From the NCBI GenBank assembly GCA_963726575.1, contig CAVSCR010000005.1, forward strand, positions 188,434 to 252,433: a stretch of DNA of 64,000 nucleotides, in the 5' to 3' direction. Numbering within the stretch: the first letter of the stretch is position 1; the number at the start of each line of letters is the position of its first letter. The translations under genes and the position numbers were made by a program. Under the pieces are notes generated by a model, which searched no databases, was not told the origin of the DNA, and worked only from the letters and a program-made list of their open reading frames with translations. This document shows, piece by piece, positions 18,088 to 37,415 of the stretch. This DNA comes from an uncultured Actinomycetota bacterium. Lineage in GTDB: Bacteria; Actinomycetota; Actinomycetes; JAHEKZ01.

Positions 18088-18950
18088 CACGTCCCGACCG
18101 ATGTGCCGCTGTGCTCGGGTCGCCGATCGGGCACTCGTTGTCCCCGCGCCTGCACCGGGCCGCCTACGAATGGCTGGGTCTGTCGTGGACCTATGACGCG
18201 ATCGACGTCACGGCGCAGGCCCTGCCTCAGTTCCTCGCCGGCCTCGGACCGGAGTGGGTCGGGCTGTCGCTGACCATGCCGTTGAAGGAAGCCGTCCTCC
18301 CGTTGCTGGACGAGGTGGAGCCGGCCGCGCTGCTGACGCGAGCGGTCAACACCGTGGTGCTCGAGAGCGGTCGACGTCTCGGCTTCAACACCGACATCGA
18401 CGGCCTCGTCGACGTGCTGCGCCGACATCGCTTCGCGGCCGGCACGCCCGCCCTGGTCCTGGGCGGTGGCGCCACCGCACGCTCGGCCGTGGCCGCGTTG
18501 GCTCGGGTGGGCGTCTCGCGTGTCACTGTGGTGACGCGACGGGAATCCGCCGGTGACGACCTCGTGACGCTCGGCGTCGACCTGGGCCAAGACGTCGTGG
18601 CGCGCGACTGGTCTGAGGTGGCGCCGCTGCTCCACTCGACCGCCGGTGCCGCAGATCTCGTGGTGAGCACCGTGCCCACGGGGGCGACCGACGACCTGGC
18701 GGTGACGGGTCCACTGCCCCCCAATGCCCTGCTCGTGGACGTGCTCTACGAACCGTGGCCGACACCACTCGCGCGGGCCTGGGGCAACGCCGGGGGAACC
18801 GCGGTCGGTGGCCGTGACCTGCTCGTCGGCCAGGCCCTGGAGCAGGTCCGCCTGATGACCGGGGAGCCGGTGCCGGCCGACGTCCTCTGGGCGGCCCTGG
18901 CCGACGGGTCCGGCACCTCAAGACCCTCGGGCGACCCGCCGAAAGAGTGA
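18084..18950 (+). CDS. aroE: Shikimate dehydrogenase
   Basis: AVLGSPIGHSLSPRLH, GLSLTMPLKE, AVNT, NTDIDG, LGGGATARS, LLVGQALEQV.LMTG; ATGA overlap with mltG. Confidence 0.95.
   Translation: MTRPDRCAAVLGSPIGHSLSPRLHRAAYEWLGLSWTYDAIDVTAQALPQFLAGLGPEWVGLSLTMPLKEAVLPLLDEVEPAALLTRAVNTVVLESGRRLGFNTDIDGLVDVLRRHRFAAGTPALVLGGGATARSAVAALARVGVSRVTVVTRRESAGDDLVTLGVDLGQDVVARDWSEVAPLLHSTAGAADLVVSTVPTGATDDLAVTGPLPPNALLVDVLYEPWPTPLARAWGNAGGTAVGGRDLLVGQALEQVRLMTGEPVPADVLWAALADGSGTSRPSGDPPKE
18917..18943 (+). promoter_or_regulatory. Sigma-28/FliA/WhiG-type promoter for the roadblock-DUF4388-GTPase operon (inside the aroE 3' end)
   Basis: CTCA-agaccctcgggcgaccc(17 nt)-GCCGAA, about 90 nt upstream of ATG 19035. 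Confidence 0.75.
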
Positions 18951-19034
18951 CAGGAGTGGGCGCCGTCCGGGCGACCGCTCCGGCGACCATTGGCCAGGCA
19001 GGGGCGGTTCACCACCGCCGCGAGAGGGTGCGTC

Positions 19035-19871
19035 ATGTCCCACGGATACGGGTCCTACGACCAGCAGTACGGCGCGGGTGCCACCGCGGACGGTCCCGGT
19101 CGCTCCGGTCAGCTCGACCGGGTGCTCGCGGACCTGATGGGCCAAGCCCCTGAGGTCGAGGCCGCGGCAGTGGTCTCCTTCGACGGGTTGCCCATGGCGT
19201 CTGCCCTGCCGGCAGGCATGGACGAGGACCGGGTGGCCGCCATGAGCGCGGCTCTGCTGTCACTTGGTGAGCGGGCCGCACAAGGTCTGGGCCGCGGTGA
19301 CCTGAACCAGGTCTACGTGGAGGGCCAGACCGGAACCGTGTTCCTGGTGTCCGCCGACGACGAGGCGGTGCTGGTGGCCGTCGGTGCTCGCGGCGCGAAG
19401 GTCGGTCTGATGCTGTTCGAGGTGCGCCAGGCGGCCGACCGGGTGGCCGCTGTGCTGCGCGAGGTGCCGGTCGTGACCGAGCAGCTCGTCGACGACGTGA
19501 CCAGCGCCGAGCCGCAGGTCGTGGCCGTCCCGCAGGTGGTGCCGGTGGCCGAGGTGCCGGTGGCTGAGGTGCCCGTGGCTGAGGTGCCGGTGGTCGAGGT
19601 GCCCCAGGTGCCCGTGCCCGTGGCCGAGCGCCCCCTGATGGCCCCCATGAACGAGCTGCCCCCGACGCCCGCGCCCATCGAGTCCCTGCCCCCCGTGCCG
19701 GTGCCGGTCGCCGAGACCTCCCTTGACGCGGTCGAGGAACCCGAGGACGACGGCGCCGCGGTGGCGTCGGTGCCGCAGGCCGCGTCCAACGGCAACGGCT
19801 CCCACGGCGCTCCGAACGGGACCTGGCCGGTGTACCCGGCGGCCAACGGGGACTCCTCCTCCTGGTCCTGA
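19035..19871 (+). CDS. Roadblock/LC7 (MglB-like) protein with long acidic Pro/Val-rich C-terminal tail
   Basis: LDRVLADL....PEVEAAAVVSFDGLPMASALP..MDEDRVAAMSAALLSLGERA...LGRG.LNQVYVEG..G.VFL is a Robl_LC7 pattern; ATG 19035 after GAGAGGG. Confidence 0.9.
   Translation: MSHGYGSYDQQYGAGATADGPGRSGQLDRVLADLMGQAPEVEAAAVVSFDGLPMASALPAGMDEDRVAAMSAALLSLGERAAQGLGRGDLNQVYVEGQTGTVFLVSADDEAVLVAVGARGAKVGLMLFEVRQAADRVAAVLREVPVVTEQLVDDVTSAEPQVVAVPQVVPVAEVPVAEVPVAEVPVVEVPQVPVPVAERPLMAPMNELPPTPAPIESLPPVPVPVAETSLDAVEEPEDDGAAVASVPQAASNGNGSHGAPNGTWPVYPAANGDSSSWS
19545..19604 (+). repeat. 4 x 15-nt in-frame tandem repeat (VAEVP/VVEVP) in the roadblock tail
   Basis: gtggccgaggtgccg / gtggctgaggtgccc / gtggctgaggtgccg / gtggtcgaggtgccc. 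Confidence 0.9.
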
Positions 19872-19933
19872 CGCCGCAGGCGACCGATCGGCGACTTCGC
19901 CGCCCCTGACGCCATGACGCCCCACCCGCACAG

Positions 19934-21238
19934 ATGGGACCCGACGTGAACCTCGAAGGCTCGCTCGACGCGTTCAGCCTTCCGGACGTCTTCCAGCTGC
20001 TCAGCCTGACGAAGAAGTCCGGGGGACTGCACCTGACCGACGGTCAGGTGCGCGGCGTCGTGTCGTTCCACGAGGGTGCTGTCACGGGGGCGACCGCAGA
20101 TGCCGGGCGCCAGTCGCTGGCCCGACGCCTGGTCGGCATCGGTGTCGTCGACGACGCGGCGCTGCGCCGGGCGGTCGAACGAGCCGCGCACGACCGCGTT
20201 GGTGTGGCCCGGGCACTGGTCGAGGCCGGCGCGGTCGACTCCGAGACGGTGCGCACCTTGGCTGCCGAGCAGACCGTCGACGCCGTCTTCGACCTGCTGC
20301 GCTGGAGCCAGGGTGACTTCGCTTTCGCGCTGGACGAGACCAACCCGAACGACGTCGGGATCGCCCTGCCCGCTGACCAGGTGGTCGCCGAGGCCACCCG
20401 CCGACGCCAGCTGTGGGACTCGGTCTCGAAGGTGATCCCCTCGCCCGACGTCGTGCTGGTGATGCCCGTCGTACTGCCGGCCGATCCGACCGTCACCCGC
20501 GACGAGTGGTCGCTGTTGGCCCTGGTCGACGGAGCCCGCACGGTCGGCGAGCTCGTGGAGCTGAGTGGAGCCGGACAGTTCAGTGTCGTGTCAGCTCTGG
20601 CCGGTCTGGTGCAACGGGGGATGCTGTCGATCAAGGACGAGGATGCGCCGGATCACGTGGTGCTGGTGCTGCGCCGCCAGGTGACGCTGGCCGCGTTGGA
20701 GACCTCGCTGCTGGAGCAGGACGCCCCGACCGACGCCTCCGGGCAGACGCTCACCGGTGAGCCGACGCAGGTCGCGCCGCAGCAGCAGGTGCAGGTGGCG
20801 CCAGCGAACGAGCCAGCCGCCACGGCGCCGCCGACGCCAACACCTGAACCGGCGCAGGTTCGCCAGCCGGCCCCGCCGCCCCTCGACCAACCGTCGGGGC
20901 CGGTCGGACTGACCAAGGCTCCCACGCCCGGGGAGGCAAGCGGCCGCGGCGCCCATCGGCCCGAAGCGGTCGTGCCCGAGCGGCCCGAGCCGTTCCGTCG
21001 GCCCCGCTCTCCGGAGCACCCGGACTCCTTGCCGAACCGACAGTCGGCGTCCGCCCAACCGGTGGCCGCACCGCCGCTGCCGCCGGTCACGTCCTCGGGC
21101 GTACCGGCGAGACCCGCTGGTTCCAGCACGGTCGGGTCGTCGGCGGTAGCCGCGGCGGCGAACCCGGCCATCGAACGTGATCCGAGCGTGAATCGGAGCC
21201 TGCTGCTGAAACTCATCGCCGGGGTCAAGGGGCTGTAG
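19934..21238 (+). CDS. DUF4388 (PATAN-like) domain protein with MshEN-like repeat, Pro-rich linker and C-terminal helix
   Basis: LEGSLDAFSLPDVFQLLSLTKKSGGLHL..G...G.VSFHEGAVTGA N-terminus; VFDLLRWSQGDFAF; EWSLLALVDGARTVGEL winged-helix-like segment; ends RSLLLKLIAGVKGL. Confidence 0.82.
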   Translation: MGPDVNLEGSLDAFSLPDVFQLLSLTKKSGGLHLTDGQVRGVVSFHEGAVTGATADAGRQSLARRLVGIGVVDDAALRRAVERAAHDRVGVARALVEAGAVDSETVRTLAAEQTVDAVFDLLRWSQGDFAFALDETNPNDVGIALPADQVVAEATRRRQLWDSVSKVIPSPDVVLVMPVVLPADPTVTRDEWSLLALVDGARTVGELVELSGAGQFSVVSALAGLVQRGMLSIKDEDAPDHVVLVLRRQVTLAALETSLLEQDAPTDASGQTLTGEPTQVAPQQQVQVAPANEPAATAPPTPTPEPAQVRQPAPPPLDQPSGPVGLTKAPTPGEASGRGAHRPEAVVPERPEPFRRPRSPEHPDSLPNRQSASAQPVAAPPLPPVTSSGVPARPAGSSTVGSSAVAAAANPAIERDPSVNRSLLLKLIAGVKGL

Positions 21239-21240
21239 AG

Positions 21241-21816
21241 ATGGCGACCAACAAGCGACGACGTCACGGTGGCCAAGCCGTCAAGGTGGTGATCACCGGT
21301 CCGTTCGCGGCGGGCAAGACGACGCTGATCCGCACGATCAGCGAGATCACGGTGCTGTCCACCGAGCGGGGGATCACCGACAACACCCGGTCTCGCAAGA
21401 ACGAGACCACCGTGGCCATGGACTTCGGCCGGATCACCATCGACGGCGATCTGGTCCTCTACCTGTTCGGGACACCCGGTCAGGAACGCTTCGACTTCAT
21501 GTGGGAGATCCTCGGCGAGGGCATGCTCGGCTACGTGGTGCTGGTCGACGTCACCCGCGCCGACTCCTTGGCCGAGGCACGAGGCATCCTCGACGCGTTC
21601 CGGCGCATGGCCCGCGTCCCGTTCGTGGTGGGCCTGAACCGTACGGACGGGGACGACGACTCCCAGGAGGCGCAGGTGCGCGAGCACCTCGACCTGGCTG
21701 CCCACATTCCTGTCGTGCCGTGCGACGCGACCGACAAGGAGTCGGTCAAGGCGCTGCTGCTGGCGCTGCTGTACAGCGTTCTCGACGAGATCGAGGCCGA
21801 GCCGGCCACGGTGTAG
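21241..21816 (+). CDS. Small Ras-like ATP/GTP-binding protein (MglA/CvnD-like)
   Basis: VKVVITGPFAAGKTTLI (G1), ETTVAMDFG (G2), LYLFGTPGQERFDFMW (G3 variant), NRTD (G4 variant), CDA. Confidence 0.93.
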   Translation: MATNKRRRHGGQAVKVVITGPFAAGKTTLIRTISEITVLSTERGITDNTRSRKNETTVAMDFGRITIDGDLVLYLFGTPGQERFDFMWEILGEGMLGYVVLVDVTRADSLAEARGILDAFRRMARVPFVVGLNRTDGDDDSQEAQVREHLDLAAHIPVVPCDATDKESVKALLLALLYSVLDEIEAEPATV

Positions 21817-21828: not shown

Positions 21829-22038
21829 ATGACGTGGTTCCGCCGTAGCGCTCGGGCTCGCCCCGCGGTCGCGCCGGCCGCCCAGGTGCCGGACTGGTGG
21901 CACGAGCCGGTGGTCCGGCTCACCTTCGCCGATGACTCGGTGGTGACGCTGCCGCCGGGCGACCCTCGTACCCGGGCGTTCACCGCTCTGGCCGACGCCC
22001 TGCGTGGGTCAAGCGGGTCACCCGTCCGGCCGATCTGA
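21829..22038 (+). CDS. Small hypothetical protein (69 aa), last gene of the GTPase module
   Basis: ATG 12 nt after the GTPase stop; MTWFRR...VRLTFADDSVVTLPPGDPRTRAFTALADAL; fills the gap before the next gene. Confidence 0.6.
   Translation: MTWFRRSARARPAVAPAAQVPDWWHEPVVRLTFADDSVVTLPPGDPRTRAFTALADALRGSSGSPVRPI
22008..22034 (+). promoter_or_regulatory. Sigma-28-type promoter for the O-antigen-ligase-like gene (possibly leaderless)
   Basis: GTCA-agcgggtcacccgtccg(17 nt)-GCCGAT; GTG start 10 nt after the -10 hexamer. Confidence 0.6.
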
Positions 22039-22043: not shown

Positions 22044-23930
22044 GTGTCCACCCTAGAAGCGCTCGTGCCCCACGGGAGCGCCACGACGCGACGCTCGTGG
22101 TGGCAGCGGGTCGGCGGCGTCGAGGCCCTCGCGGCCGCGCTCGCCCTGCTGGGCTGGGGCATCGTCTTGACGCATGCCACCGGTGGACAGGCTCCCTACA
22201 CGTTGGCTCTGGTCACCGCGTCTGCGCTGCCGTTGCTCTTCGTCAGCGGGGCGGCTCGACGGGTGCCCCTGCGCGCGCTCGCCTTCGTGCTGCTGCCCGG
22301 GGCGGTCGCGCTCGGCCTGAACAGCGTGTCGGCCACCGGCTGGTCGGGACTCGGCGAGGCCGCCGCGTGGTGGTATGCCGCTCTGCTCGGACTCGGCGTC
22401 GTCAGCTACGCACGGACTCCGGCCCGGCGGCAGCTCGTGGCCGCACTGGTGCTGCTGGTCGGCACCGAGCAGATGTACCAGGCCTGGTTCGCCTGGTGGG
22501 GATCCGGCGATCGCCAGGCCCTGATGGTCGGCACCTTCTTCTGGCACAACCCCTTCGCCGCGTTCCAGGCGGCGATCTCGCTGGTGGCGCTCGCGGTCGC
22601 GATGCGGGCGACCGGCTGGCTGCGCCGTCTCGGGCTCGTGCTCGCCCCTTGGTTGGCCGCCGGGGTGTGGCTGTCCGGGAGTCGTGCCGGCCTGGCCCTG
22701 TGGGTGCTGGCGGTCCTGGCCCTCGTGGCCCTCGGGGCACGCACCTGGCGCCAGGCCGCCACGGTTGGCGCCGCATCCGTGGGGTCGCTCGCGCTCGCCT
22801 GGCTGTTGGCCTCACCGGTGCTGATGGGGGGAGCGGCCGGGTCGGGTGGCTCCGGCGTCGGTGCGGCCGGGCGCACGGAGGCGGCTGAGGGCAACTTCTT
22901 GATCCGGCTGGACTACTGGCGGGCCGCGGCGCGGCTGGCCAGCCACCATCTCTGGACCGGTTCCGGGTTCGGCTCGTTCGCCGGGGCCGGAGCCCCGTAC
23001 ATGCCGGCCGACAAGTCGGCCAGCTCTGCGGTGCACAACGGCTGGTTGCAGGCGATGGTCGACGGCGGTCTCGTGCTGGCCCTTCCGGTCATCGCAGTCA
23101 CGGGGTGGCTCGCCATCCGTGCCGTCCGGCGGCTGCTGAGCGCCCGGCATGCCGGCGCCGACCCGGTCGCCATCGGCGCGGCATCCGGGGTCGTGCTCTT
23201 GCTCGCCCACGCCCTCTTCGACCTCGACTGGGCCTACCCGGCACTGCTGGCGCTGTTCGCCGTGCTGGTGGGGCTGCTCCCGTGGCGGTTGCAGGCGGTC
23301 GCCGCCCCCCGGTCGGGGCGCCTCTCCCGCTGGGGGGTCGCCCCAATTCCGGTGGTGGCAGTGCTGGCTGCGGTGGGAGTGCTGACGGTGGGTGCCGCGC
23401 TGGTCGACGGCGCGCAACGGGTGCAGGATCGCCCCGCTGTCGGGTGGCAGCGGGTCGTCGACCAGGTGCTTCCCGTCAGGGCGCTGGCCGCGCGCCTGCC
23501 CAGTGAGTCGCAGCAGATCGCAGTCCTGCTCGCGGCGCGCACGCTGGCGCCGCCGGCGGTTCGCGACGCGCTGGCCCAGACGGTCCGAGCCAGCGCCGAC
23601 GATCCCGTGCTGGCCCAGTACCGGGCATTCGCCATGGTGGCGCTCGGCGACGTCGACGCCGGCCTCGCCGAATCGGCCGCGAGGTATCCGGCCGCTCCTC
23701 GCCCGAAGACCGTGCTGGCCCGCGCCGAGGTGCTGGTGGCCGCCGGCGACACCCGTGGCGCCGTCGACCTCGTCACCCAGGCACTCGGGGCGGCGCAACG
23801 GGCCGGATCGCCGGCTGCGCCTGATCTGGCGCAATGGCTCAGTTTGCATCCCGCTTCTGCCGAAGCCTCTACGCAGGGCGGGGATTCGACCTCGGTGGGG
23901 ACCGACACGTTTGGGGAGGCCACCCGGTGA
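22044..23930 (+). CDS. O-antigen ligase (Wzy_C)-family polytopic membrane protein; candidate pilin oligosaccharyltransferase
   Basis: About 12 hydrophobic segments; GTFFWHNPFAAF, LSGSRAG, IRLDYWRAA, WTGSGFGSF, AVHNGWLQAMVDGGL, LLAHALFD; Ala-rich helical C-terminus. Confidence 0.85.
   Translation: MSTLEALVPHGSATTRRSWWQRVGGVEALAAALALLGWGIVLTHATGGQAPYTLALVTASALPLLFVSGAARRVPLRALAFVLLPGAVALGLNSVSATGWSGLGEAAAWWYAALLGLGVVSYARTPARRQLVAALVLLVGTEQMYQAWFAWWGSGDRQALMVGTFFWHNPFAAFQAAISLVALAVAMRATGWLRRLGLVLAPWLAAGVWLSGSRAGLALWVLAVLALVALGARTWRQAATVGAASVGSLALAWLLASPVLMGGAAGSGGSGVGAAGRTEAAEGNFLIRLDYWRAAARLASHHLWTGSGFGSFAGAGAPYMPADKSASSAVHNGWLQAMVDGGLVLALPVIAVTGWLAIRAVRRLLSARHAGADPVAIGAASGVVLLLAHALFDLDWAYPALLALFAVLVGLLPWRLQAVAAPRSGRLSRWGVAPIPVVAVLAAVGVLTVGAALVDGAQRVQDRPAVGWQRVVDQVLPVRALAARLPSESQQIAVLLAARTLAPPAVRDALAQTVRASADDPVLAQYRAFAMVALGDVDAGLAESAARYPAAPRPKTVLARAEVLVAAGDTRGAVDLVTQALGAAQRAGSPAAPDLAQWLSLHPASAEASTQGGDSTSVGTDTFGEATR
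23838..23864 (+). promoter_or_regulatory. Sigma-28-type promoter for pilB (inside the 3' end of the ligase gene)
   Basis: CTCA-gtttgcatcccgcttct(17 nt)-GCCGAA, 63 nt upstream of GTG 23927. Confidence 0.72.
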
Positions 23931-25712: not shown

Positions 25713-25739
25713 CTCAAGGGGTGACGCCCTCGCGCCGAT
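25713..25739 (+). promoter_or_regulatory. Sigma-28-type promoter for pilT-pilC
   Basis: CTCA-aggggtgacgccctcgc(17 nt)-GCCGAT in the pilB-pilT intergenic region. Confidence 0.78.
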
Positions 25740-25814
25740 GCCTGCCAAAGAGGAATACCGCTGGCGCCGCCGGTGGTCAAGGAACCCGCGCTCGGGCGCG
25801 GAGGGAGGGCCCAC

Positions 25815-28970: not shown

Positions 28971-28990
28971 AACCCCTAGGTCAAGAGCCA

Positions 28991-29076
28991 TCCGGCCAGA
29001 AACGGCACTCCCGTCGTAAGGCGGGGTCGCAAAGCCAGGGGACCCAAGCCGGTCAGCCCAGCTACCTCGGTCCGGA
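28991..29076 (+). ncRNA. Cyclic di-GMP-I (GEMM) riboswitch in the major pilin 5' UTR
   Basis: GGCAC, stem CCCGTC/GGCGGG capped by a GNRA loop (GTAA), conserved GCAAAG junction, second stem GACC..GGTC, then GCTACC; matches the recalled c-di-GMP-I consensus. Boundaries approximate. Confidence 0.85.
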
Positions 29077-29142: not shown

Positions 29143-29583
29143 ATGCTCGCACGAATTCGCAAGGCGATGGACGAGCGTGAAGAGGGCTTCACCCTCATCG
29201 AGCTCCTCGTCGTCATCATCATCATCGGTATTCTGGCCGCGATTGCGATCCCGGTCTTCCTGAACCAGCGCAAGAAGGCAGTCGACGCCTCGATGAAGTC
29301 CGACTCCCGGACGATCGCCAACGAGGAAGAGACCTACTTCACTGACTACCAGGCCTACGTTGCCACGAGCGGCTCCGCGCCGGTCATTGGTGCCACCACG
29401 GTCCGGTTGTCCACCGGTAACACCGCCACGATCACGCTGAACACTGCTACTTCGGCGTACTGCATCCTGATGGACCGTGTGGCGGGCGCCCAGCCCGGCA
29501 CCCAGAAGTGGGTCTACATCAGCAGCCAGGGCGGCCTCCAGGCAACTGGCACCGTCGCCTGCCCGGCAGCGGGTTCCTTCTAG
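29143..29583 (+). CDS. pilA: Major type IVa pilin (PilA-like)
   Basis: Class III signal MLARIRKAMDEREEG/FTLIELLVVIIIIGILAAIAIPVFLNQRKK with Glu5; C-terminal Cys pair; has its own promoter, riboswitch and terminator. Confidence 0.92.
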   Translation: MLARIRKAMDEREEGFTLIELLVVIIIIGILAAIAIPVFLNQRKKAVDASMKSDSRTIANEEETYFTDYQAYVATSGSAPVIGATTVRLSTGNTATITLNTATSAYCILMDRVAGAQPGTQKWVYISSQGGLQATGTVACPAAGSF

Positions 29584-29766: not shown

Positions 29767-30222
29767 ATGCCACCCCGGGACGACTTCCGGGGCCAGGGGG
29801 AGCTGGACTCACCCGACACAGGATTCACCCTGATCGAGTTGCTCGTCGTCATCATCATCATTGGCATCCTGGCGGCAATCGCGATCCCGGTGTACCTGAA
29901 CCAGAGGCAGCGGGCCTATGACGCCGCAGCCAAGTCGGACATCCGCAACCTGGCCCAGTTCGAAGAGACCTACCTGGTCAGCTACGGCACGTACGGTTCG
30001 TTCACGGACCTGGCCGGCAACTCGCTGTCGGTGACGGCGACGCGCAAAGTGACGCTGACGATCAGCTACATCGGCGGCACCGGGTTCTGCCTCACCGGCA
30101 AGAACGCGATGTCCCCGACGACGTGGTACTACGACAGCCAAGCCGGTGGTCTGCAACCCACCGGGAGCGGCAGCTGTCCGATCTCGACGGGCGGCACCAG
30201 CGGCGGAAGCCTGACCGGTTGA
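29767..30222 (+). CDS. Second type IVa pilin (PilA paralogue)
   Basis: SD GAGGAGG; leader ...DSPDTG/FTLIELLVVIIIIGILAAIAIPVYLNQR; FCLTG...WYYDS..GGLQ...SC, same layout as the first pilin. Confidence 0.9.
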   Translation: MPPRDDFRGQGELDSPDTGFTLIELLVVIIIIGILAAIAIPVYLNQRQRAYDAAAKSDIRNLAQFEETYLVSYGTYGSFTDLAGNSLSVTATRKVTLTISYIGGTGFCLTGKNAMSPTTWYYDSQAGGLQPTGSGSCPISTGGTSGGSLTG

Positions 30223-30320: not shown

Positions 30321-30347
30321 CTCAAGACGGCCTCAGACGATGCCGAT
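30321..30347 (+). promoter_or_regulatory. Sigma-28-type promoter for the minor pilin operon (possibly leaderless)
   Basis: CTCA-agacggcctcagacgat(17 nt)-GCCGAT; ATG 30357 is 10 nt downstream. Confidence 0.78.
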
Positions 30348-30356
30348 GGCCTGGGC

Positions 30357-31709
30357 ATGCGGATGGCATCGACGCGTCTTCGACGTGTCTCGCGACGGAT
30401 GACCGGCTCTGACACCCAAGCCGGTCTCACGATGATCGAGGTCATCATGGCCATGGTGATCTTCGCCATGGTGGCCGGGGCGGTCGTGACCGGCCTGGCG
30501 AGCGCCATGAAGACGGCACGGACCGACAAGAACCGCGTGGCGGCGGCCAACCTCGCCGCCCGCGAGCTGGAGATCACCCGCAACGAGTTCAACTCGAGCT
30601 CGGGCAGCCCGGCCGCGCTGGCCGCGCAGAACCAGGTGGTCGACCCTCACCCGCTGCCCGGCGGCACGGCTGGCAACCCGCTGCTGGTCGACAACGTCCC
30701 CTACACGGTCACCCGCAACGTCGAGTGGCTGCCCGCCGGCAGCGGCAAGAGTGCCTGTGACGGCGGCGCCGCGATCACGTACCCGACCCTGTCGGTGCAC
30801 GTCGAGGTGACCTGGCCGGTGATGGGCAACGTGCCACCGGTCGAGACGACGACGATGATGACGCCGGCCAAGGGCACCATGGCCTCGACTCTGTCGTTCG
30901 TCGGAGTGAAGGTCCTCAACAGTGCCGGGTCGCCGCAGAGCGACCTGCCGGTGTCGCTGAGCGGCCCAGGAGGATCCTTCACCGACACCACGGCCGACGA
31001 CGGCTGCGCCGTCTTCGCGCTCTCGTCAGCCGGCACGTACACGGCATCGCTGAGCTCGAGCGGCTACGTCGACTACTACGGCACCGCGGCGCCGACCAAG
31101 ACGGTGGTGGTGACGGCGAGCACGCTGTCGCAGCTGCAGTTCAACTACGACAAGGCCGCGACGTTGACGGTGGGTCTCACGACCCAAGCCGGATACGCGC
31201 TGCCCACCACGTTGCCCGGTATCACCTTGGCCAACACCGGGCTGCAGCCCTCCGGCGTCCGTACGCAGGCGTCGAGCGGCGCCAGCACCACCATCCCGAC
31301 GTTGTGGCCGTTCACCGACGGCTACTCGGTGTGGGCCGGTACGTGCTCGCAGTCCGACCCCGCGACCGCAGGCGGCACGCGCTCCCCGGCCGTCATCGTC
31401 AATCCCGGCGCCTCCGGATCGACGACCGCGTCGTTGGCGCCGGTCCAGGTGAACGTCAAGAACGCCGCGGGAGTCGCACTGGCCAACGCGACCGTGGTCG
31501 CGGTACCGCTGTCGACCACTGGCTGCCTCACGACGGAGACCTCGTTGACCCTCGGCGTCACGAACTCGACCGGCCTGCTGATGACGTCCTTGCCGGCCGG
31601 CAAGTGGACCTTGCAGGTCTCGGGCAAGAGCCCGTCAGGCAGCTGGCCGACTACTCCGTCGCTGCTCCCGACCTCATCCCCGACGACCATGATGGTGGTG
31701 ACCACGTGA
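30357..31709 (+). CDS. Large PilV-like minor pilin with C-terminal beta-rich (prealbumin/carboxypeptidase-regulatory-like) domains
   Basis: Leader MRMASTRLRRVSRRMTGSDTQAG/LTMIEVIMAMVIFAMV, then A..LAARELE; Ser/Thr/Gly-rich C-terminal part with TxxxGCAVF and TNSTGLL motifs. Confidence 0.8.
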   Translation: MRMASTRLRRVSRRMTGSDTQAGLTMIEVIMAMVIFAMVAGAVVTGLASAMKTARTDKNRVAAANLAARELEITRNEFNSSSGSPAALAAQNQVVDPHPLPGGTAGNPLLVDNVPYTVTRNVEWLPAGSGKSACDGGAAITYPTLSVHVEVTWPVMGNVPPVETTTMMTPAKGTMASTLSFVGVKVLNSAGSPQSDLPVSLSGPGGSFTDTTADDGCAVFALSSAGTYTASLSSSGYVDYYGTAAPTKTVVVTASTLSQLQFNYDKAATLTVGLTTQAGYALPTTLPGITLANTGLQPSGVRTQASSGASTTIPTLWPFTDGYSVWAGTCSQSDPATAGGTRSPAVIVNPGASGSTTASLAPVQVNVKNAAGVALANATVVAVPLSTTGCLTTETSLTLGVTNSTGLLMTSLPAGKWTLQVSGKSPSGSWPTTPSLLPTSSPTTMMVVTT

Positions 31710-32422
31710 TCGCAGCGTTGCGACGCCGGATCCGATCCGCTCGCCCAGACGGTGGCTTCACGCTGACCGAGCTGCTGGTGACCATCTTCATCCTCGGCAT
31801 CGTGCTGGCCGGCGTGCAGACGACCCTGATCTTCACGCAGCGCACGGTCGGCGAGCAGTCGATCCGCGTCGACCAGACGCAGCAGACCAGCGAAGCGATG
31901 AACGCGGTCACGAAGACGCTGCGCACGGCCGTTCTGCCGTCCCAGCTCAACGGCACCTGCTCCAGCTGTGACCTGGCCGCCTTCATCCAGGGAACGCCGA
32001 CCTCGGTGTCCTTCTACGCCAACATCAACAACGACGGCAACACCGTCGGCCCGTCGCGGGTGAGCTACTCGGTGAACTCCAAGTACGAGCTCATCGAGTC
32101 GATCCAGCCGCCGAACCCGCACGCGACCACCGACTTCAACTACCAGTACTGCACGCCAGGGACGTCCGGCTGCGTGGTCAAGACCCGAGTCCTGGCCCGC
32201 AATCTCGTTCCGGGCTCGGCGATCTTCACCTACTACGACCCGAACGGTGTCTCGCTCGGCACCGGCACGCTGACCGCCACCGACCTGGCCAACGTCGACA
32301 CGATGGACGTGGTCATCTCGGTACGCGACTCCACGGCGTCGCGGGTACCCCCCACCACCTTCATGGCACGCGTGAGCATGCCGAACCACGACTCCGTCAC
32401 CACGGCGTCGGCGAGTCCGTGA
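31706..32422 (+). CDS. PilW-like minor pilin
   Basis: GTGA overlap; MIAALRRRIRSARPDGG/FTLTELLVTIFILGIVLAG; AMNAVTKTLRTA. Confidence 0.85.
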   Translation: MIAALRRRIRSARPDGGFTLTELLVTIFILGIVLAGVQTTLIFTQRTVGEQSIRVDQTQQTSEAMNAVTKTLRTAVLPSQLNGTCSSCDLAAFIQGTPTSVSFYANINNDGNTVGPSRVSYSVNSKYELIESIQPPNPHATTDFNYQYCTPGTSGCVVKTRVLARNLVPGSAIFTYYDPNGVSLGTGTLTATDLANVDTMDVVISVRDSTASRVPPTTFMARVSMPNHDSVTTASASP

Positions 32423-32433
32423 CAGGAGCGACG

Positions 32434-34072
32434 ATGTTCGCAGAGATGGTCGCCCGACTTCGTGCGCGGTCGCAGCGCGTAGACGGCCGCGATGAGGGCA
32501 TTGCCATGATCATGGTGATGGCCTCGATCGTGGTGCTCAGCATGCTGCTGGCCACCGCCTACATGGTGGCGCTACAGGCGCAGCCGGAAGCGCGGCACAC
32601 CCAGGACTGGGACGGTGCGCTCGCAGCGGCGCAGGCCGGCGTGGACGACTACATCGCCCGTCTGAACCAGAGCGACACCTACTGGACCACGGTTGACTGC
32701 ACGAACCCAGCCTTGAAGGGTCCCAAGGCAGGAACGAACTCCTGCGGCTGGACCTCGACGACGCCGGTCGGATGGCAGTCGGTCCAACCGGGCAACCCGA
32801 ACGCGGGCCGGTTCCACTACGACGTCGACGCGTCGGGCATCTACAGCCAAGGCGCAGTCCGCGTGACCGCCACCGGACAGGTGCGCGGCGTCTCGCGCTC
32901 CATCCAGGTGCTGGTGTCCCGAGGTGGCTCGACCCAGTTCCTGTACTACACCGACTTCGAGGACGCCGACCCGGCGAACACCCAGGCCTACCCGAGCGGG
33001 GCGCCGAACAACGCCTGTGGCAAGTCCGGTCCGACGCTGGCGCAGTACTACTGGCAGAACAGCAGCCGTGGCTGTGTCGAGATCCAGTTCGTCACGGGTG
33101 ACACGCTGGACGGCGCCGTGCACTTCAACGACACCCCACTGATCAACGGATCGACAGTCTTCCTGAAGTCCTACGAGACGTCAGACCCGAAGTGCCAGAC
33201 CCCGTCGATCGCCAACTGCCGTCGCGGGACCGGTACCCCGAACCTGAACGGTGGCCAGCCGCGGTATGCACCGCTGCTGTACCTGCCCGACAACAGCAAC
33301 CAGTTCTCGACGTTCCCCGGCTGCCAGTACACCGGCGACACCCGCATCGTGTTCAACAACGACGGAACCATGAAGGTGTGGAGCTACGGCAGCACGGGCA
33401 CAACGCTCGGCACCGGTTGCGGCAACCCGGCGGGACCGTGGCCGCAGACCGTCAACGTGCCCAACGACCAGGTGATCTACATCAAGAACGGCTCGACGCA
33501 GAGCAAGTGCACCACGGGACAGATCGGTGACGGCCTGCCCTCTGGCAACGGACGACAACGTGAACACGCCGACGTTCTACTGCGGCAACGGAAACGCCTA
33601 CATCGAGGGCACCGTCAAGGGTCGCGTGACGCTGGCGGCGCAGAACAACGTGATCGTCACCGACGACCTGCTGGTCGCCAGCACACCGGTCACCCAGGCG
33701 CCGGTCGGCCCGGACATCGTCGGCCTGGTGGCGGGCAACTCGGTGGTCGTCTACCACCCGGTCAATGCCTCGGGCACGAACCTGAAGGCGCCGGAGGACC
33801 GCTGGATCTACGCCTCGATCCAGGCCCTGCAGCACAGCTTCTGGGTCCAGTCCTACGACCAGGGCGTCAAGATGGGCACCCTGCACGTACGCGGCTCGAT
33901 CGCCCAGAAGTGGCGCGGCATCGTCGGTACCAGTGGCAGCAGCGGCACCGGCTACCTGAAGGACTACGGCTACGACTCGCGGCTGAAGTTCACCTCACCG
34001 CCGTACTTCCCCCAGTGGACGAACGCGGTGTGGGGCGCCAAGACCACGGCGGAGCTGACCCCGCAGTACTGA
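32434..34072 (+). pseudogene. PilX-like large minor pilin/tip adhesin, interrupted by an apparent +1 frameshift at 33538-33540 (real lesion or sequence error)
   Basis: Leader ...RDEG/IAMIMVMASIVVL (no Glu5, PilX-like); ALAAAQAGVDDY. After GDGLP the first frame turns non-protein-like, while the shifted frame continues LATDDNVNTPTFYCGNGNAYIEG...YDSRLKFTSPPYFP to TGA 34072. Confidence 0.8.
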
Positions 34073-34198: not shown

Positions 34199-34225
34199 CT
34201 CAAGCCCAGGCAAAGTCGCTCCGAT
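34199..34225 (+). promoter_or_regulatory. Sigma-28-type promoter for pilMNOP
   Basis: CTCA-agcccaggcaaagtcgc(17 nt)-TCCGAT (one mismatch to GCCGAT), in the pilX-pilM intergenic region. Confidence 0.68.
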
Positions 34226-34298
34226 GCCTTCCTTTGACATGGCCCGAATGGGCTCACCCACGCGGCCTAGCCGCGGATACGGTGAAGGGAAGATCGCA

Positions 34299-35363
34299 GT
34301 GGCTGCACGAACCGCCATCGGTCTCGACATCGGCACCTCGGGGGTGCGGGCCGCAGAGCTTGCCTTTGGCAAGAGCGGCATCACGCTGGAGAAGTTCGGG
34401 CAGGTCGCCCTCCCCGAAGGCGTCGTCAGGGACGGCGAAGTCTTCGACCCCGACGCCGTCACAGAGGCCATCAAGCAGTTGTGGGCGCACACCAAGTTCG
34501 CCAGCAAGAAGGTCGTCATCGGTGTCGCCAACCAGAAGGTGATCGTCCGCCAGGTCGACCTTCCCTGGGCGCCCCTGGACGAGCTGAAGGGCTCGCTGGG
34601 GTTCCTGGTGCAGGACACGATCCCGATGCCGGTCGAGAGCGCGCTGCTGGACTTCTACCCGCTGGAGGACCTCACCGGTGACGGTGGCGTCAAGATGGTG
34701 CGCGGCCTGCTGGTCGCCGCATCGCGGGAGATGGTCTCCTCGCACCTCAGCGCGGTCCAGAAGGCCGGCCTGCAGCCCGAGATGGTCGACCTGACCGCCT
34801 TCGCCGTGCTGCGCGCGCTGGCCGACATGGATGACGTGGGCATGGGCGGACAGCTCGAGGCCCTCGTCGACGTCGGCGCCCGGGTCACCAACGTCATCGT
34901 GCACGAAGGCGGCGTTCCCCGGTTCGTCCGCATCCTGCTCATGGGCGGTCAAGACGTCACCGAAGCGGTCGTCGACCGCGCCGGCGTCTCCTCCGCCCAA
35001 GCCACCGCGCTGAAGCAGGAGATCGGCATGCAGGCCACGGGAGCGACCATGGAGGCGCAAGCCGCCGGACGCGTCATGGACGCAGCCGGCCAGGCCTTCG
35101 TGGACCAGGTTCGTGGCTCGCTCGACTACTACACCGCCTCGAGCGGCTCGCAGCCGTTGTCCCGGCTGGTCCTCACCGGTGGTGGCTCGCGACTGATCGG
35201 CCTGGCCGAGCGGCTCGCGCAAGCCACCCGGGTCCCCGTCGTTCCCGGCAACCCGTTCGCTGACCTGACGGTCGGCAAGACCGGGTTGTCGCCGGAGCAA
35301 CTCACATTCGTCGAGCCACTGGCCTCCGTGCCGGTCGGTCTTGCCCTGGGGGTGGCGTCGTGA
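34299..35363 (+). CDS. pilM: Type IV pilus assembly protein PilM
   Basis: AIGLDIGTSGVRAAEL, KKVVIGVANQKVIVRQVDLP, ALVDVGARVTNV, QVRGSLDYY, LTGGGSRL; GTG after GAAGGGA. Confidence 0.95.
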   Translation: MAARTAIGLDIGTSGVRAAELAFGKSGITLEKFGQVALPEGVVRDGEVFDPDAVTEAIKQLWAHTKFASKKVVIGVANQKVIVRQVDLPWAPLDELKGSLGFLVQDTIPMPVESALLDFYPLEDLTGDGGVKMVRGLLVAASREMVSSHLSAVQKAGLQPEMVDLTAFAVLRALADMDDVGMGGQLEALVDVGARVTNVIVHEGGVPRFVRILLMGGQDVTEAVVDRAGVSSAQATALKQEIGMQATGATMEAQAAGRVMDAAGQAFVDQVRGSLDYYTASSGSQPLSRLVLTGGGSRLIGLAERLAQATRVPVVPGNPFADLTVGKTGLSPEQLTFVEPLASVPVGLALGVAS

Positions 35364-36040
35364 CCACGCTGACCGCGACCCGGGTCGCCACACTGCCCCG
35401 CGTCAACCTGCTTCCGCCCGAGATCGCCGAGGCCGCGAAGTTCCGCCGGCTGCAGACGCTCCTCGGCGTGGCCGTGGGCGTGACCCTGCTCTTGGTCGGG
35501 GCGCTGTGGTTCATGGCGCGCTCGTCGGCGGATTCGGCCCAGACGCGTCTCAACGAGGCCACGCTGGCGTCGGTCAGCCTGCAGCAACAGGTGGCCCAGT
35601 ACGCCAGCGTGCCCGAGAAGGCGCAGGAGCTGGCCACGGCCGAAGGACAGCTCGCCGTGGCGATGGCGCCCGAGGTGCGCTGGTCCTTCTACCTCAACGA
35701 CCTCAGCCTGACCATCCCCGACGGCGTGCGTCTGACCACGCTGACGATGACCGAGCCGCTGGCGACCTCGCTGGGCTCGGGAACCGTCACGACCACGACG
35801 GGCGTCGAGGGCTCGGTCGGCATCGGTGGCATCAGCTACACGGGTGCGGCGTCCTCGTTCGACTCCGTTGCCAAGTGGCTGCAGGTCCAGACGCACGAAT
35901 GGGGCGTCACCGAGCCGTGGCCGGTCGACCTGGAGAACGCCGCAGGGCAGACGACGGTCAAGCCCGTCACCGACTGGTCCTCGAAGATCACCGTCACCAC
36001 CGACGCGTTGTCGCACCGCTACGACAAGTGGGGTAACTGA
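35360..36040 (+). CDS. pilN: Type IV pilus assembly protein PilN
   Basis: PilM-binding LPRVNLLPPE motif, TM helix, coiled coil, WS..LNDLS..IPDGV.LT.L. Confidence 0.92.
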   Translation: MTTLTATRVATLPRVNLLPPEIAEAAKFRRLQTLLGVAVGVTLLLVGALWFMARSSADSAQTRLNEATLASVSLQQQVAQYASVPEKAQELATAEGQLAVAMAPEVRWSFYLNDLSLTIPDGVRLTTLTMTEPLATSLGSGTVTTTTGVEGSVGIGGISYTGAASSFDSVAKWLQVQTHEWGVTEPWPVDLENAAGQTTVKPVTDWSSKITVTTDALSHRYDKWGN

Positions 36041-36042
36041 CC

Positions 36043-36711
36043 ATGACCCGCAGCCGACAGTGGACCCTCGGTGCCGTTGCGATCGTGGTTGTGATCGCAC
36101 TGGCCGGATGGTTCCTCCTCGTGCAGGCCGAGCGTAAGCACGCTGCCTCGCTCAACCTGCAGACTGCCCAGCAGCTCAAGACCAACCAGGGGCTCCAGGC
36201 GCAGATCGCCATGCTGAAGGCGCAGAGCAAGAACCTGCCTCAGATGGAGGCCAGCCTGGCCAAGGTCAGGACCAGCATCCCGGTGGCATCTGAGATGCCG
36301 CAGCTGATCCGCCAGCTCACGGACGCCGCGAACGCCTCTGGCGTCACGCTGCGCTCCCTGATGCCGGCCGACCCGGTCTCGGTCACGCCGACCTCGTCGG
36401 AGACCGGTGGGGTCGTCCTGCCTCCTGGCCAGCTGGCGATCGTCAACCTGAAGCTGGAGTTCGACGGCAACTTCTTCGAGACCGAAGAGTTCATGAGCCG
36501 GCTCGAGAAGATGCCGCGGGCGATCCTCACCAGCTCGCTGCAGCTCGCCTCGCAGTCGGACACCAACCAGCTGCACGGTGTGATCCAGGCTCGTGTGTTC
36601 TTCGCACCGCAGGAACTGCCGGTGACGTCGGAGATCCCGGGCGTCACTCCTCCGGCACCCGTCTCGTCCCCGGCAGCTTCTTCCACGGCCGCCCCGACCA
36701 CGGTCCAGTAG
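36043..36711 (+). CDS. pilO: Type IV pilus assembly protein PilO
   Basis: TM helix, coiled coil, IP...EMPQLIRQL..AA..SGV.L, FFETEEFM.RLEKMPR. Confidence 0.9.
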   Translation: MTRSRQWTLGAVAIVVVIALAGWFLLVQAERKHAASLNLQTAQQLKTNQGLQAQIAMLKAQSKNLPQMEASLAKVRTSIPVASEMPQLIRQLTDAANASGVTLRSLMPADPVSVTPTSSETGGVVLPPGQLAIVNLKLEFDGNFFETEEFMSRLEKMPRAILTSSLQLASQSDTNQLHGVIQARVFFAPQELPVTSEIPGVTPPAPVSSPAASSTAAPTTVQ

Positions 36712-36724
36712 GAAAGGCACTTCG

Positions 36725-37366
36725 ATGAGCGACATGAACCAGGTACCCGCGGAGCAGGCGCAGCTCGACAACGCGCTCACTCCGGAGGGTGGCACCGGCA
36801 CCAACCGCCGGCTGTTGTTCGTGCTGGGTGGGGCTGCCCTCGTGGTGGCCGCGCTGGGTGGCTTCTTCCTGCTGCACTCCGGTGGTTCCAGCGGCGGGGA
36901 CGTCAGCGGCGTGGTCGTGGTCGCCCACCCCACCACCAAGGCGAAGCCGAGCGCGAGCGCCAGCCCGAGCGCCGGACAGACCGTGCCTCCGGTGTACCAC
37001 GGCCAAGCGGGGCGCAACCCGTTCAAGCCGTTGGCCATCGAAGCTCAGGTCACGTCGTCGGCCCTGCCGACCGACACGTCCAGCCCGGCGCCGACGTCCG
37101 GCTCCGGAGGGACGACGCCGTCAGCGGTGTCGACCTACCAGCTGACGGTCGAGAGCGTGAGCGTCTCCGGTCAGACCGCGACCTTCTGGGTCAACGGCGT
37201 GAAGTACTCCGACGTGGCCGTCGGTGGCACCTTCGCGTCGGTGTTCCGGCTCGACAGCGTCGGCACCGACAGCAAGTCCGGCAAGAAGTTCGTGACGCTC
37301 ACCTTCGGTGACGTCGCGCAGCCGGGCAAGCGCTACGAGCAGTCCACCTGGATCTTCACCCCCTGA
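36725..37366 (+). CDS. Membrane-anchored pilus-associated protein in the PilP position
   Basis: Single TM helix, Ser/Pro linker, GRNPFKPL (RNPF motif as in PilP-like proteins), small C-terminal beta domain; last gene of the pilMNO operon. Confidence 0.65.
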
Positions 37367-37376
37367 CGATCCGCAC

Positions 37377-37415
37377 CGCGAAACGGCCGCCCTGTTCCGG
37401 GGCGGCCGTTTCGCG
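37377..37415 (+). terminator. 16-bp hairpin closing the pilus block
   Basis: cgcgaaacggccgccc-tgttccg-gggcggccgtttcgcg. Confidence 0.8.

Follow-up and report, generated by a model that had tools for sequence, protein, structure and literature searches.

Organization of the locus

The window analysed here, a 64-kb stretch of actinobacterial DNA, carries a block of genes between aroE and aroC in which a small GTPase module heads a type IVa pilus gene cluster. Searches of the translated open reading frames (ORFs) against Pfam and NCBIfam place every gene of the aroE-to-aroC interval on the + strand and bear out the gene content that an initial annotation had assigned to it. The module comprises a roadblock protein, a PATAN (PatA N-terminal) protein, an MglA-family GTPase and a small conserved protein, and is followed by pilB, pilT, pilC, the pilin genes and pilMNO. 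The block is a conserved type IVa pilus locus of an Actinomycetes clade that includes uncultured genomes and Longivirga. We propose that the GTPase module regulates the pilus machinery, a reading to which we assign a probability of roughly 0.6. Each part is known separately (the sigma-28 promoters, cyclic di-GMP (c-di-GMP) and the GTPase trio); what appears to be new, judging from the literature searched, is the conserved coupling of the module to the pilus genes. The module and the control elements of the block are as follows.

18917..18945, + strand: promoter P1, CTCAAG-N15-GCCGAAAG, before the roadblock gene (exact motif match)
19035..19871, + strand: roadblock/LC7 (MglB-like) protein with a long Pro/Val/Glu-rich C-terminal tail (Pfam Robl_LC7, 64.6 bits)
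19934..21238, + strand: PATAN (DUF4388/PF14332) protein (Pfam DUF4388, 87.5 bits, residues 8-161)
21241..21816, + strand: small GTPase of the MglA family, Group 5-like, 191 residues (Pfam ATP_bind_1/Ras/Arf, NCBIfam small_GTP)
21829..22038, + strand: conserved small protein of 69 residues, fourth gene of the module (phmmer homologues)
22008..22036, + strand: weaker fifth promoter-like site, GTCAAG-N15-GCCGATCT, sigma-28-like, before the Wzy_C gene and pilB
22044..23930, + strand: Wzy_C (O-antigen-ligase family) membrane protein (Pfam Wzy_C, 46.9 bits)
25713..25741, + strand: promoter P2, CTCAAG-N15-GCCGATGC, before pilT (exact motif match)
28944..28972, + strand: promoter P3, CTCAAG-N15-GCCGAAAA, before the riboswitch and pilA (exact motif match)
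28994..29069, + strand: c-di-GMP-I aptamer (Rfam RF01051, 49.3 bits, gathering score 35), spanning the whole model
30321..30349, + strand: promoter P4, CTCAAG-N15-GCCGATGG, before the minor-pilin/pilMNO unit (exact motif match)

The gaps from the roadblock gene through PATAN, GTPase and 69-residue ORF to the Wzy_C gene are 62, 2, 12 and 5 nt, and the Wzy_C gene ends inside or just before pilB, for which an alternative upstream ATG lies at 23834. This tight packing from the roadblock gene to pilB fits a single operon. In about 30 related loci, phmmer detected a homologue of the 69-residue ORF immediately downstream of the GTPase gene. This family has M.W.RR..GRH at the N-terminus and V.LGFADGS.V.L..DDPR...F at the C-terminus, joined by a linker that varies, and, judged by this conservation, the ORF is a real gene. 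It belongs to no Pfam or NCBIfam family, and we found no description of a fourth conserved small gene of such a module in the literature searched. The Wzy_C gene was detected in only about 11 of 80 related loci and is thus accessory, perhaps through sporadic gain or loss; its product may act in pilin modification, and we take it to be a candidate O-glycosylase of the TfpO/PglL type. NCBIfam gave no match for the roadblock, PATAN, 69-residue or Wzy_C proteins.

Linkage of the module to pilus genes

Related loci were collected by scanning one genome per species (GTDB) with an alignment of PATAN-protein homologues. The resulting 80 loci come from Actinomycetes metagenome-assembled genomes labelled 'Nanopelagicales', Sporichthyaceae, Acidothermaceae and Frankiaceae, and from the cultured Longivirga aurantiaca; as the scan was seeded with the PATAN protein, pilus loci without the module would escape it. 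Counts for each gene or interval refer to testable loci only, i.e. contigs reaching far enough. Where the contig suffices, the order is alaS, ruvX, mltG, aroE, roadblock, PATAN, GTPase, (Wzy_C), pilB, pilT, pilC and pilin. Neighbours of the PATAN gene include the GTPase gene in 71/71 loci, an upstream roadblock gene in 70/70, pilB in 61/61, pilT in 45/45 and aroE in 64/65. The GTPase is by far the most conserved component (70-83% identity within the clade, compared with 42-71% for the PATAN protein and 49-88% for PilB).

More distant GTPase lineages (49-57% identity) hold the PATAN-GTPase pair in other arrangements. In one locus (L084) the C-terminus of a PATAN protein is followed by the GTPase, a 408-residue protein, a pilin, a DUF7305 protein, pilB and pilT, and in another (L092) a PATAN C-terminus is followed by the GTPase and pilB. 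A third arrangement, shared by L087 and L088, runs aroE, pilB', PATAN, GTPase, pilB, pilT, pilC, pilin and pilD, and continues to pilM, with no roadblock gene. In L087 (GCA_034399355.1, 7267-12294) the pair lies between two full-length PilB paralogues and pilD is part of the cluster, a configuration useful for dissecting which PilB the module addresses. The initial annotation had looked to synteny as a check on its proposal, and this check came out in its favour: the module adjoins pilB in all testable clade loci, and the PATAN-GTPase pair is linked to pilB, in other orders, in L084, L087 and L092. We found no description, in the literature searched, of such a module embedded in a type IVa pilus locus with a shared sigma-28-type promoter.

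Elsewhere among the relatives, in L085 and L086, a sister GTPase (56% identity) has a GyrA/ParC-like gene on one side and a roadblock gene on the other, an arrangement reminiscent of mycobacterial MfpB, a system that targets DNA gyrase. Two further GTPase representatives, P0253 and P0254, come from contigs of about 1 kb that show the conserved PATAN C-terminal motif upstream and nothing further informative.

Promoters and riboswitch

The motif CTCAAG-N14-16-GCCGA occurs four times in the window, against 0.11 expected. All four exact sites have an N15 spacer, lie on the + strand in intergenic sequence, and head a unit of the pilus block each. The positional equivalent of the weaker fifth site, CTCAAG-N14-GCCGATCT/GA, lies upstream of pilB in 13 loci. 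For the clade-wide footprint we used a relaxed motif, T[CA]AAG-N14-16-NNCGA[AT], with the opposite strand as control. It was found in the aroE-roadblock interval of 65/71 loci (opposite strand, 1), between pilB and pilT in 58/59 (opposite strand, 1), between pilC and the first pilin in 45/51 (opposite strand, 0) and between the GTPase gene and pilB in 24/69 (opposite strand, 0). Even the strict motif is present in 53 of the 71 aroE-roadblock and 41 of the 59 pilB-pilT intervals. Across the clade, the -35 and -10 blocks are kept and the spacers are variable. Since the relaxed motif is retained before the roadblock gene, the GTPase module is preceded throughout the clade by a promoter of the type found at the pilus units. 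CTCAAG...GCCGA also occurs inside the pilus clusters of two of the distant loci, between pilB and pilT in L084 and before the minor-pilin unit in L087.

The published consensus for WhiG1/FliA (the flagellar clade, in Actinoplanes) has a -35 element CTCA, a spacer of N16-17 and a -10 element GCCGAACT, and that for WhiG2 is T(A/C)AA-N16-GCCGATAA with an invariant central CGA (2026 preprint, PMC12871210). Read as CTCA-N17-GCCGA, the window motif fits the WhiG1/FliA consensus CTCA-N16-17-GCCGA exactly (PMC12871210). The four sites can thus be classed, from their sequence, as putative sigma-28 (WhiG/FliA)-type promoters, on which we infer that a factor of this family acts.

The c-di-GMP-I aptamer sits in the 5' leader of pilA, 74 nt before its ATG, and of 11 clade loci sampled, 10 have such an aptamer ahead of pilin genes. 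Each of the 10 aptamers inspected in related loci is itself preceded by a sigma-28-type motif. With a riboswitch in front of the major pilin, pilin supply would additionally be gated by c-di-GMP. Some relatives carry tandem riboswitch-pilin units, namely L011 (16703-16788 and 17540-17625), L057 (9771-9845 and 10458-10532) and L065 (16835-16909 and 17509-17584); the second aptamer of L011 was called as a c-di-GMP-I-GGC variant (RF03167, 60.6 bits). A class I riboswitch on actinobacterial pilins has not, as far as we found in the literature searched, been described.

These results bear on the proposal of the initial annotation that the block is an undescribed, sigma-28- and c-di-GMP-controlled system with one promoter motif common to the GTPase module and the pilus units. 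The common motif stands, with four exact sites that fit the sigma-28 consensus. The riboswitch is real; it would govern only the pilin unit and not the whole block. The novelty of the control itself has to be given up: in Rubrobacter radiotolerans, the type IV pilus cluster is under the (RsiG)2-(c-di-GMP)2-WhiG switch, which works at three intra-cluster promoters (PMC8325347), and FliA-type promoters have reportedly been confirmed in the Actinoplanes pilus cluster and are predicted in five further actinobacterial families (PMC12871210). A riboswitch, a GTPase, a roadblock gene and DUF4388/PATAN go unmentioned in both papers.

The GTPase and the roadblock protein

The motifs of the GTPase were read from its translation and compared with 113 representative relatives. 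They are GPFAAGKT (G1), ETTV (G2), FGTPGQ (G3), NRTD (G4) and CDAT (G5), of which GPFAAGKT and FGTPGQ are invariant in the family alignment. The MglA family is defined by a P-loop GxxxxGK[ST] and a G3 motif in which Thr replaces the universal Asp (PMC4316618), the Thr-for-Asp replacement being given also in PMC3000849. The P-loop GPFAAGKT and the GTPGQ of G3 place the window protein in this family. Within it, proteins of Group 1 (MglA proper and SofG) have their own arginine finger, adjacent to the threonine of G2, with TVPGQ in G3, and Groups 2-5 have GTPGQ and TT in place of the arginine finger (Wuichet and Sogaard-Andersen 2015, PMC4316618). The window GTPase, with Thr at the Arg position of its G2 and GTPGQ in G3, does not belong to Group 1, and its similarity to Thermus thermophilus MglA (3t12) is weak (E = 0.0027). 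Group 2, the conservon proteins CvnD and MfpB, is marked by G4 NxFD and G5 DAR and by neighbouring cvnA (histidine kinase) and cvnC (DUF742) genes (PMC4316618); the NRTD and CDAT of the window protein exclude it from this group, and a Pfam search of the block detected neither a CvnA-type kinase nor DUF742. Group 5 is characterized by GTPGQ, TT in G2, a near-canonical G4 and a frequent adjacency to PATAN and MglB genes; the window protein shares these features, with Arg for the canonical Lys in G4. By its motifs and gene arrangement, rather than by a phylogeny with the 2015 reference set, the protein would therefore be Group 5-like. Its nearest relatives among the 113 full-length sequences are a mixture, some being Group 5-like proteins with a canonical G4 (NKQD) and others NxFD/DAR conservon proteins at 40-48% identity. 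An AlphaFold2 model of the GTPase built on a shallow alignment reached a predicted local distance difference test score (pLDDT) of 60 and was, for this reason, left out of the fold search.

The closest solved structures of the roadblock protein are the roadblock proteins 7f8m and 9jue and CvnB5 (3leq). It also carries an Asp-Gly pair (SFDGLP), the 'DG' noted for MglB partners of Groups 2-5 (Wuichet 2015, PMC4316618). Its fold, its adjacency to the GTPase gene and this pair identify it as an MglB/roadblock partner.

The PATAN protein

DUF4388 corresponds to the PATAN domain (bioRxiv 10.1101/2021.06.11.447907). In the window protein, a PATAN domain that contains a helical insertion is followed by a winged-helix-like domain, then by a Pro-rich linker that is disordered, and at the C-terminus by a conserved helix ending in ...NRSLLLKLIAGVKGL. 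In the AlphaFold2 model, pLDDT exceeds 90 for most of residues 11-230; a β-sheet core is interrupted by a four-helix insertion (residues 61-122) between β-strands and followed by the winged-helix-like domain (residues 189-234), and residues 270-415 are disordered up to the terminal helix. Both the domain-model match and the α-helical insertion mark it as a PATAN domain. When the whole model was compared with the PDB by Foldseek, no structure matched it globally at a significant level (best E = 0.12). Locally, the helical insertion (window 20114-20299) matched the N-domain of c-di-GMP-bound MshE (5htl_B) over 52 columns with a root-mean-square deviation of 1.5, and its sequence is loosely like the MshEN repeat. 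A further short local match was to a PilB N-domain (7lkn_A). Both local matches are leads and not evidence. We considered whether the winged-helix part could be a fused CvnC (DUF742), and rejected this: Pfam at E <= 10 returned no DUF742, only weak MarR_2 and HTH_9 matches.

The last ~15 residues follow the pattern (R/K)(S/G)L(L/I/V)x(R/K)(L/F)Ix(G/R)(V/I)(R/K)(G/S/E)(L/I) from Actinomycetes to Chloroflexi. This amphipathic motif is kept in every lineage examined, including Chloroflexi (...QRSLINRLIERIRSI), even though the length of the linker before it ranges from ~20 to ~180 residues. It was noted within the following stretches.

21190-21238 of the window: C-terminal motif of the PATAN protein
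9163-9972 of L081: PATAN C-terminal motif
9174-9986 of L083: PATAN C-terminal motif
3-224 of L084: PATAN C-terminal motif
9001-9984 of L087: PATAN C-terminal motif
L091-L093: PATAN C-terminal motif

The helix could be a docking peptide or a membrane tether. The literature searched holds, as far as we found, no description of this motif.

In Synechocystis, the PATAN domains of PixE and PixG bind the N-termini of PilB1 and PilC, and these domains alone suffice to change pilus-driven behaviour (bioRxiv 10.1101/2021.06.11.447907). For the locus described here, the adjacency of the PATAN gene to pilB suggests that a comparable contact with PilB or PilC may be made.

Comparison with known systems

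The trio of roadblock, PATAN and GTPase genes corresponds to an arrangement already catalogued. The supplement of Wuichet and Sogaard-Andersen (2015, PMC4316618) lists a Group 5 MglB>PATAN>MglA trio for Acidothermus cellulolyticus, Aquificae, Chloroflexi, Cyanobacteria and Deinococcus-Thermus, with examples in Acidothermus (printed as 'Accl_1323', presumably Acel_1323), Aquifex (aq_1844), Roseiflexus (RoseRS_3912) and Deinococcus (DR_2180). The window module has the same three gene types, in the same order as the Aquificae and Roseiflexus entries, and its GTPase has the same Group 2-5 signatures (GTPGQ, TT in G2, no arginine finger) and no conservon signatures. An Acidothermaceae genome in our data set has the same locus with a GTPase of 192 residues, compared with 193 for the Acidothermus entry, so that the window module is very probably orthologous to that entry. 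The catalogue differs in that it notes no pilus link (the word 'pilus' has 0 occurrences in the supplement of PMC4316618), and the fourth small gene, the PATAN C-terminal motif and the promoter are likewise unnoted there.

Being a Group 5 trio, the module is not a conservon with DUF4388 in the CvnC slot. It does share with the conservons (cvnABCD, Group 2) a roadblock protein and an ATP_bind_1-type GTPase in an actinobacterium, the NCBI name 'ATP/GTP-binding protein' applies to both, and the window roadblock protein resembles CvnB5 (3leq). It differs in having a PATAN protein and a small conserved protein instead of the CvnA histidine kinase and DUF742, and in NRTD and DAT instead of NxFD and DAR. 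Of the comparison made in the initial annotation, the absence of CvnA and DUF742 is upheld and the idea of a DUF4388 protein standing in for CvnC is replaced by the Group 5 assignment.

The Myxococcus xanthus MglA/MglB polarity switch, a Group 1 system, acts on type IV pili through SgmX. It has in common with the window module a Ras-like GTPase with Thr for Asp in G3 and a roadblock-fold partner. Unlike the Myxococcus protein, the window GTPase has neither the Group 1 arginine finger nor TVPGQ, so the mechanism of MglA/MglB is not simply transferable; the description of the module as MglA/MglB-like holds for the family (GTPGQ, Thr for Asp) and fails for MglA proper. The pilus block showed no gene for RomR/RomX, SgmX or Frz, and the effector proposed here is, unlike that of Myxococcus, the PATAN protein. 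The mglAB genes of Myxococcus are not encoded beside the genes of their named interaction partners (PMC4316618). In both Myxococcus and Bdellovibrio, type IV pili are under the control of GTPases of the MglA family.

The cyanobacterial regulators PixG, PixE and LsiR, like the window protein, have a PATAN/DUF4388 domain with a helical insertion, and they control pilus-driven movement (bioRxiv 10.1101/2021.06.11.447907). They differ in having a receiver domain and being driven by a phosphorelay or photoreceptors, whereas the window protein has the winged-helix-like domain, the disordered linker, the C-terminal helix and the pairing with a GTPase.

Several sigma-28-type promoters within a type IV pilus cluster, and an involvement of c-di-GMP, are features that the locus shares with those of R. 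radiotolerans and Actinoplanes missouriensis (PMC8325347; PMC12871210). In Rubrobacter, c-di-GMP acts via the anti-sigma factor RsiG, whereas the visible c-di-GMP input in the window is the riboswitch on the pilin leader. Clostridioides difficile likewise has a c-di-GMP-sensing riboswitch in the leader of its major type IV pilin and no secretin (Bordeleau 2015, cited in PMC6916266). The window pilin aptamer belongs to class I and has a sigma-28-type promoter before it; that of C. difficile is reportedly, from the work of Bordeleau in 2015, a class II aptamer, with no sigma-28 promoter.

Pilus machinery and genomic context

The remaining features of the block and its flanking genes are listed below.

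18054-18950, + strand: aroE (Pfam), 5' flank of the block
23966..25669, + strand: pilB, extension ATPase with an MshEN-type N-terminal domain (Pfam T2SSE, 465 bits, and MshEN; TIGR02538, 630 bits)
25816..27619, + strand: pilT, retraction ATPase with a low-complexity N-terminal extension, core ORF 26144-27619 (TIGR01420, 482 bits)
27631..28851, + strand: pilC, platform protein (Pfam T2SSF, two domains, 223.5 bits)
28865..28905, + strand: GC-rich inverted repeat after pilC, a terminator-like hairpin without a U-tract, read from the sequence and unscored by the terminator scan
29143..29583, + strand: pilA, major pilin (Pfam N_methyl) with class III signal peptide ...EEGFTLIELLVV
29767..30222, + strand: second pilin, pilA2 (Pfam N_methyl, weak ComP_DUS match)
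30357..31709, + strand: large minor pilin in the PilV/W position (Pfam N_methyl; homologues in related loci)
31703..32422, + strand: minor pilin, start approximate (Pfam N_methyl at residues 150-171 of a long ORF; homologues in related loci)
32419..34072, + strand: PilX-position gene, no Pfam family (by comparison with L031 and L076)
34224..35363, + strand: pilM (Pfam PilM_2, 163.8 bits)
35360..36040, + strand: pilN-like gene, by position and topology (weak Pfam PilN match, 17.8 bits, under the cut-off)
36043..36711, + strand: pilO (Pfam PilO, 44.3 bits)
36725..37366, + strand: PilP-position gene, 213 residues, with a membrane anchor, a Ser/Pro-rich linker and a C-terminal domain (no family)
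about 37446-38627, + strand: aroC, 3' flank of the block

PilB, PilT, PilC, PilM/N/O and the class III pilins identify the machinery as type IVa, PilN being the weak member. The PilP-position protein has no Pfam or NCBIfam match above noise, and there is no secretin in the pilus block. A pilD gene (Peptidase_A24) was absent from the long window ORFs scanned, with 40.2-41.6 kb and a few short ORFs outside the scan. Since pilD lies inside the cluster of the distant relative L087, it is probably located elsewhere in this genome.

Direct c-di-GMP control of the extension ATPase is possible, not supported: the N-terminus of PilB (window 23966-24140) scored 29 bits with the MshE-type c-di-GMP motif model NF053729, under the 38-bit cut-off, and by eye both motifs are without key Gly residues.

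Two pilus genes have an apparent break in frame. In pilT, an apparent frameshift near 26,020-26,045 (~26.03 kb) separates the N-terminal extension from the core ORF; the extension starts at GTG 25816 with a good ribosome-binding site (RBS) and stops at 26013, and the core frame opens at 25946. The region is repetitive, with three copies of CCCGAACCTGCG at about 26100-26140. In relatives, PilT has a continuous Pro/Glu/Ala-rich N-terminal extension of 100-250 residues that starts 50-100 nt after the sigma-28-type promoter. The PilX-position gene is split near 33,530-33,540, where the frame changes after ...TTGQIGDGLP and resumes as LATDDNVNTPTFYCGNGNAY; in L031 and L076 it is a single continuous ORF of roughly at least 600 residues, which runs off the end of the locus. 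This second break is either an assembly error or the mark of a pseudogene.

The block is framed by housekeeping genes, with secDF, relA, hisS, aspS, alaS, ruvX and mltG upstream and aroC, aroK, aroB, efp and polA downstream, in DNA of 64-74% GC over 2-kb windows. A tRNA gene at 42787-42860 (- strand; Rfam, 57.7 bits), 3' of efp, is unrelated to the pilus block. The window also encodes a PorA-family protein (PF11271; 55496-56956) and a 1482-residue AftD-like arabinofuranosyltransferase (58934-63382), which are envelope genes of the arabinogalactan type. Given these, the assumption that the host is a simple monoderm calls for caution and is not established.

Proposed function and alternative explanations

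In the arrangement that we propose, a sigma-28-family factor would drive the locus in four or five units. The first would comprise the roadblock, PATAN, GTPase and small-protein genes, sometimes the Wzy_C gene, and pilB, so that PilB would be co-expressed with the G-protein module. pilT and pilC would form the second, and the minor pilins and pilMNO the fourth. The third would be the major pilin behind its c-di-GMP-I riboswitch, through which c-di-GMP would provide the additional gate on pilin supply. The PATAN protein would serve as effector or adaptor, docking on the N-terminal domains of PilB and/or PilC as in Synechocystis. The roadblock protein would cycle the GTPase, as a GTPase-activating protein and/or guanine nucleotide exchange factor, and the nucleotide state of the GTPase would decide whether or where PATAN engages the motor, turning extension on or off or confining it to one site. 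The invariant C-terminal helix of PATAN may provide a handle for the GTPase or the roadblock protein, or a membrane tether. Most likely, the module would work in the manner of the Myxococcus connection from MglA/MglB to the pilus and the cyanobacterial connection from PATAN to PilB and PilC combined. The docking of PATAN on PilB/PilC as the specific mechanism is put forward tentatively, by analogy, at somewhat less than an even chance. We hold with similar reserve the fuller picture of a dedicated module at the pilus motor, in which PATAN would act on both PilB and PilC, the GTPase cycle would time or place extension and the MshEN-like insertion might be a second c-di-GMP input. The earlier description of the module as a polarity or timing switch dedicated to pilus extension/retraction is likewise conjectural.

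A regulatory role at the pilus has to be weighed against several unfavourable observations. Synteny within the clade is weak evidence of a functional link, because the housekeeping frame is equally conserved: the whole alaS-ruvX-mltG-aroE...aroC frame has no functional tie to pili and is kept as well as the module. The closest non-actinobacterial homologues, PATAN-GTPase pairs of Chloroflexi with 56-60% identity and the same PATAN architecture, have pil genes within 10 kb in 0 of 3 cases, and two sister GTPases on short actinobacterial-like contigs adjoin a roadblock gene with no pil gene in view. We found no experimental data on, or function assigned to, any Group 5 MglA module in the literature searched. 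The folding of the pilA leader gave no clear terminator or RBS-sequestering alternative, its minimum free energy being no better than that of shuffled sequences (z = -0.86), and a terminator scan stayed at chance level. No sigma-factor gene was found among the ORFs scanned in the 64-kb window, and in this assembly the pilT extension and the pilX-like gene each have an apparent frameshift.

Some of these points would be expected if the module were a general cellular switch, for polarity, growth, division or the envelope, that stands beside the pilus genes through a frozen alaS...aroC gene order and has no action on the pilus. The syntenic flanks (aroE in 64/65), the Chloroflexi pairs of the same architecture away from pil genes, and the sister GTPases that adjoin a GyrA-like gene or only a roadblock gene all fit this explanation. 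It does not account for the module's own promoter, whose sigma-28-type motif is that of the pil units and is kept across the clade, nor for the three more distant lineages that hold PATAN-GTPase beside pilB in different orders, and PATAN domains have been tied experimentally to PilB and PilC (bioRxiv 10.1101/2021.06.11.447907). The promoter footprint and the recurrence beside pilB in other gene orders do carry weight beyond synteny within the clade, and we regard a switch unrelated to the pilus as unlikely.

A role at the pilus could also be exerted on transcription instead of on the motor, if the PATAN protein were a DNA-binding regulator whose winged helix bound pil promoters in a way set by the state of the GTPase. 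The winged-helix-like domain after PATAN (helices 189-227 and a strand in the AlphaFold2 model), the precomputed MarR_2 matches of some homologues and the weak MarR_2/HTH_9 matches of the window protein point in this direction. The helix-turn-helix scores, however, fall far short of the Pfam cut-offs (14.9 bits, with 27 required), DNA binding is disfavoured by the work on cyanobacteria, which places PATAN regulators at the membrane and the motor (bioRxiv 10.1101/2021.06.11.447907), and an amphipathic C-terminal helix behind a long disordered linker resembles a tether or docking peptide and not a transcription factor; this mode of action is improbable. Decay of the pilus system in this genome, with real frameshifts in pilT and the pilX-like gene and the block a relic, would be compatible with the other explanations, including regulation of the pilus by the module in relatives. 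Two frame breaks set against continuous ORFs in relatives, and no pilD among the window ORFs scanned, are what a relic would show. All other genes are intact, with normal codon-position GC, as are the promoters and the riboswitch; two single-base frame errors in 18 kb, that of pilT at least in a repetitive GC-rich stretch, are typical of assembly errors, and pilD may sit elsewhere, as it often does. We regard a decay of the block as improbable.

Implications

With the regulation of the pilus by the GTPase module as the preferred reading, a single type IVa pilus locus would combine three regulatory layers, with a sigma-28-type regulon, control of the pilin by a c-di-GMP riboswitch, and a G-protein switch. 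To our knowledge, the type IVa pili of Actinomycetota have barely been studied. At least six phyla have MglA GTPases of Group 5 with PATAN and roadblock partners, and we found no function assigned to them in the literature. If correct, our proposal would give a Group 5 MglA its first function and would, for the first time, extend GTPase control of pili beyond the Gram-negative paradigm of Myxococcus and Bdellovibrio. Should the module have no action on the pilus, the analysis would still yield a clean annotation of a conserved pilus locus and correct the idea of a degenerate conservon. As the module shares operon and promoter type with pilB across a clade that includes the cultured Longivirga aurantiaca and Acidothermus cellulolyticus, its function is open to ordinary experiments. 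The main value of the finding is thus a concrete, testable function for a widespread, uncharacterised class of GTPases in a clade with cultured members.

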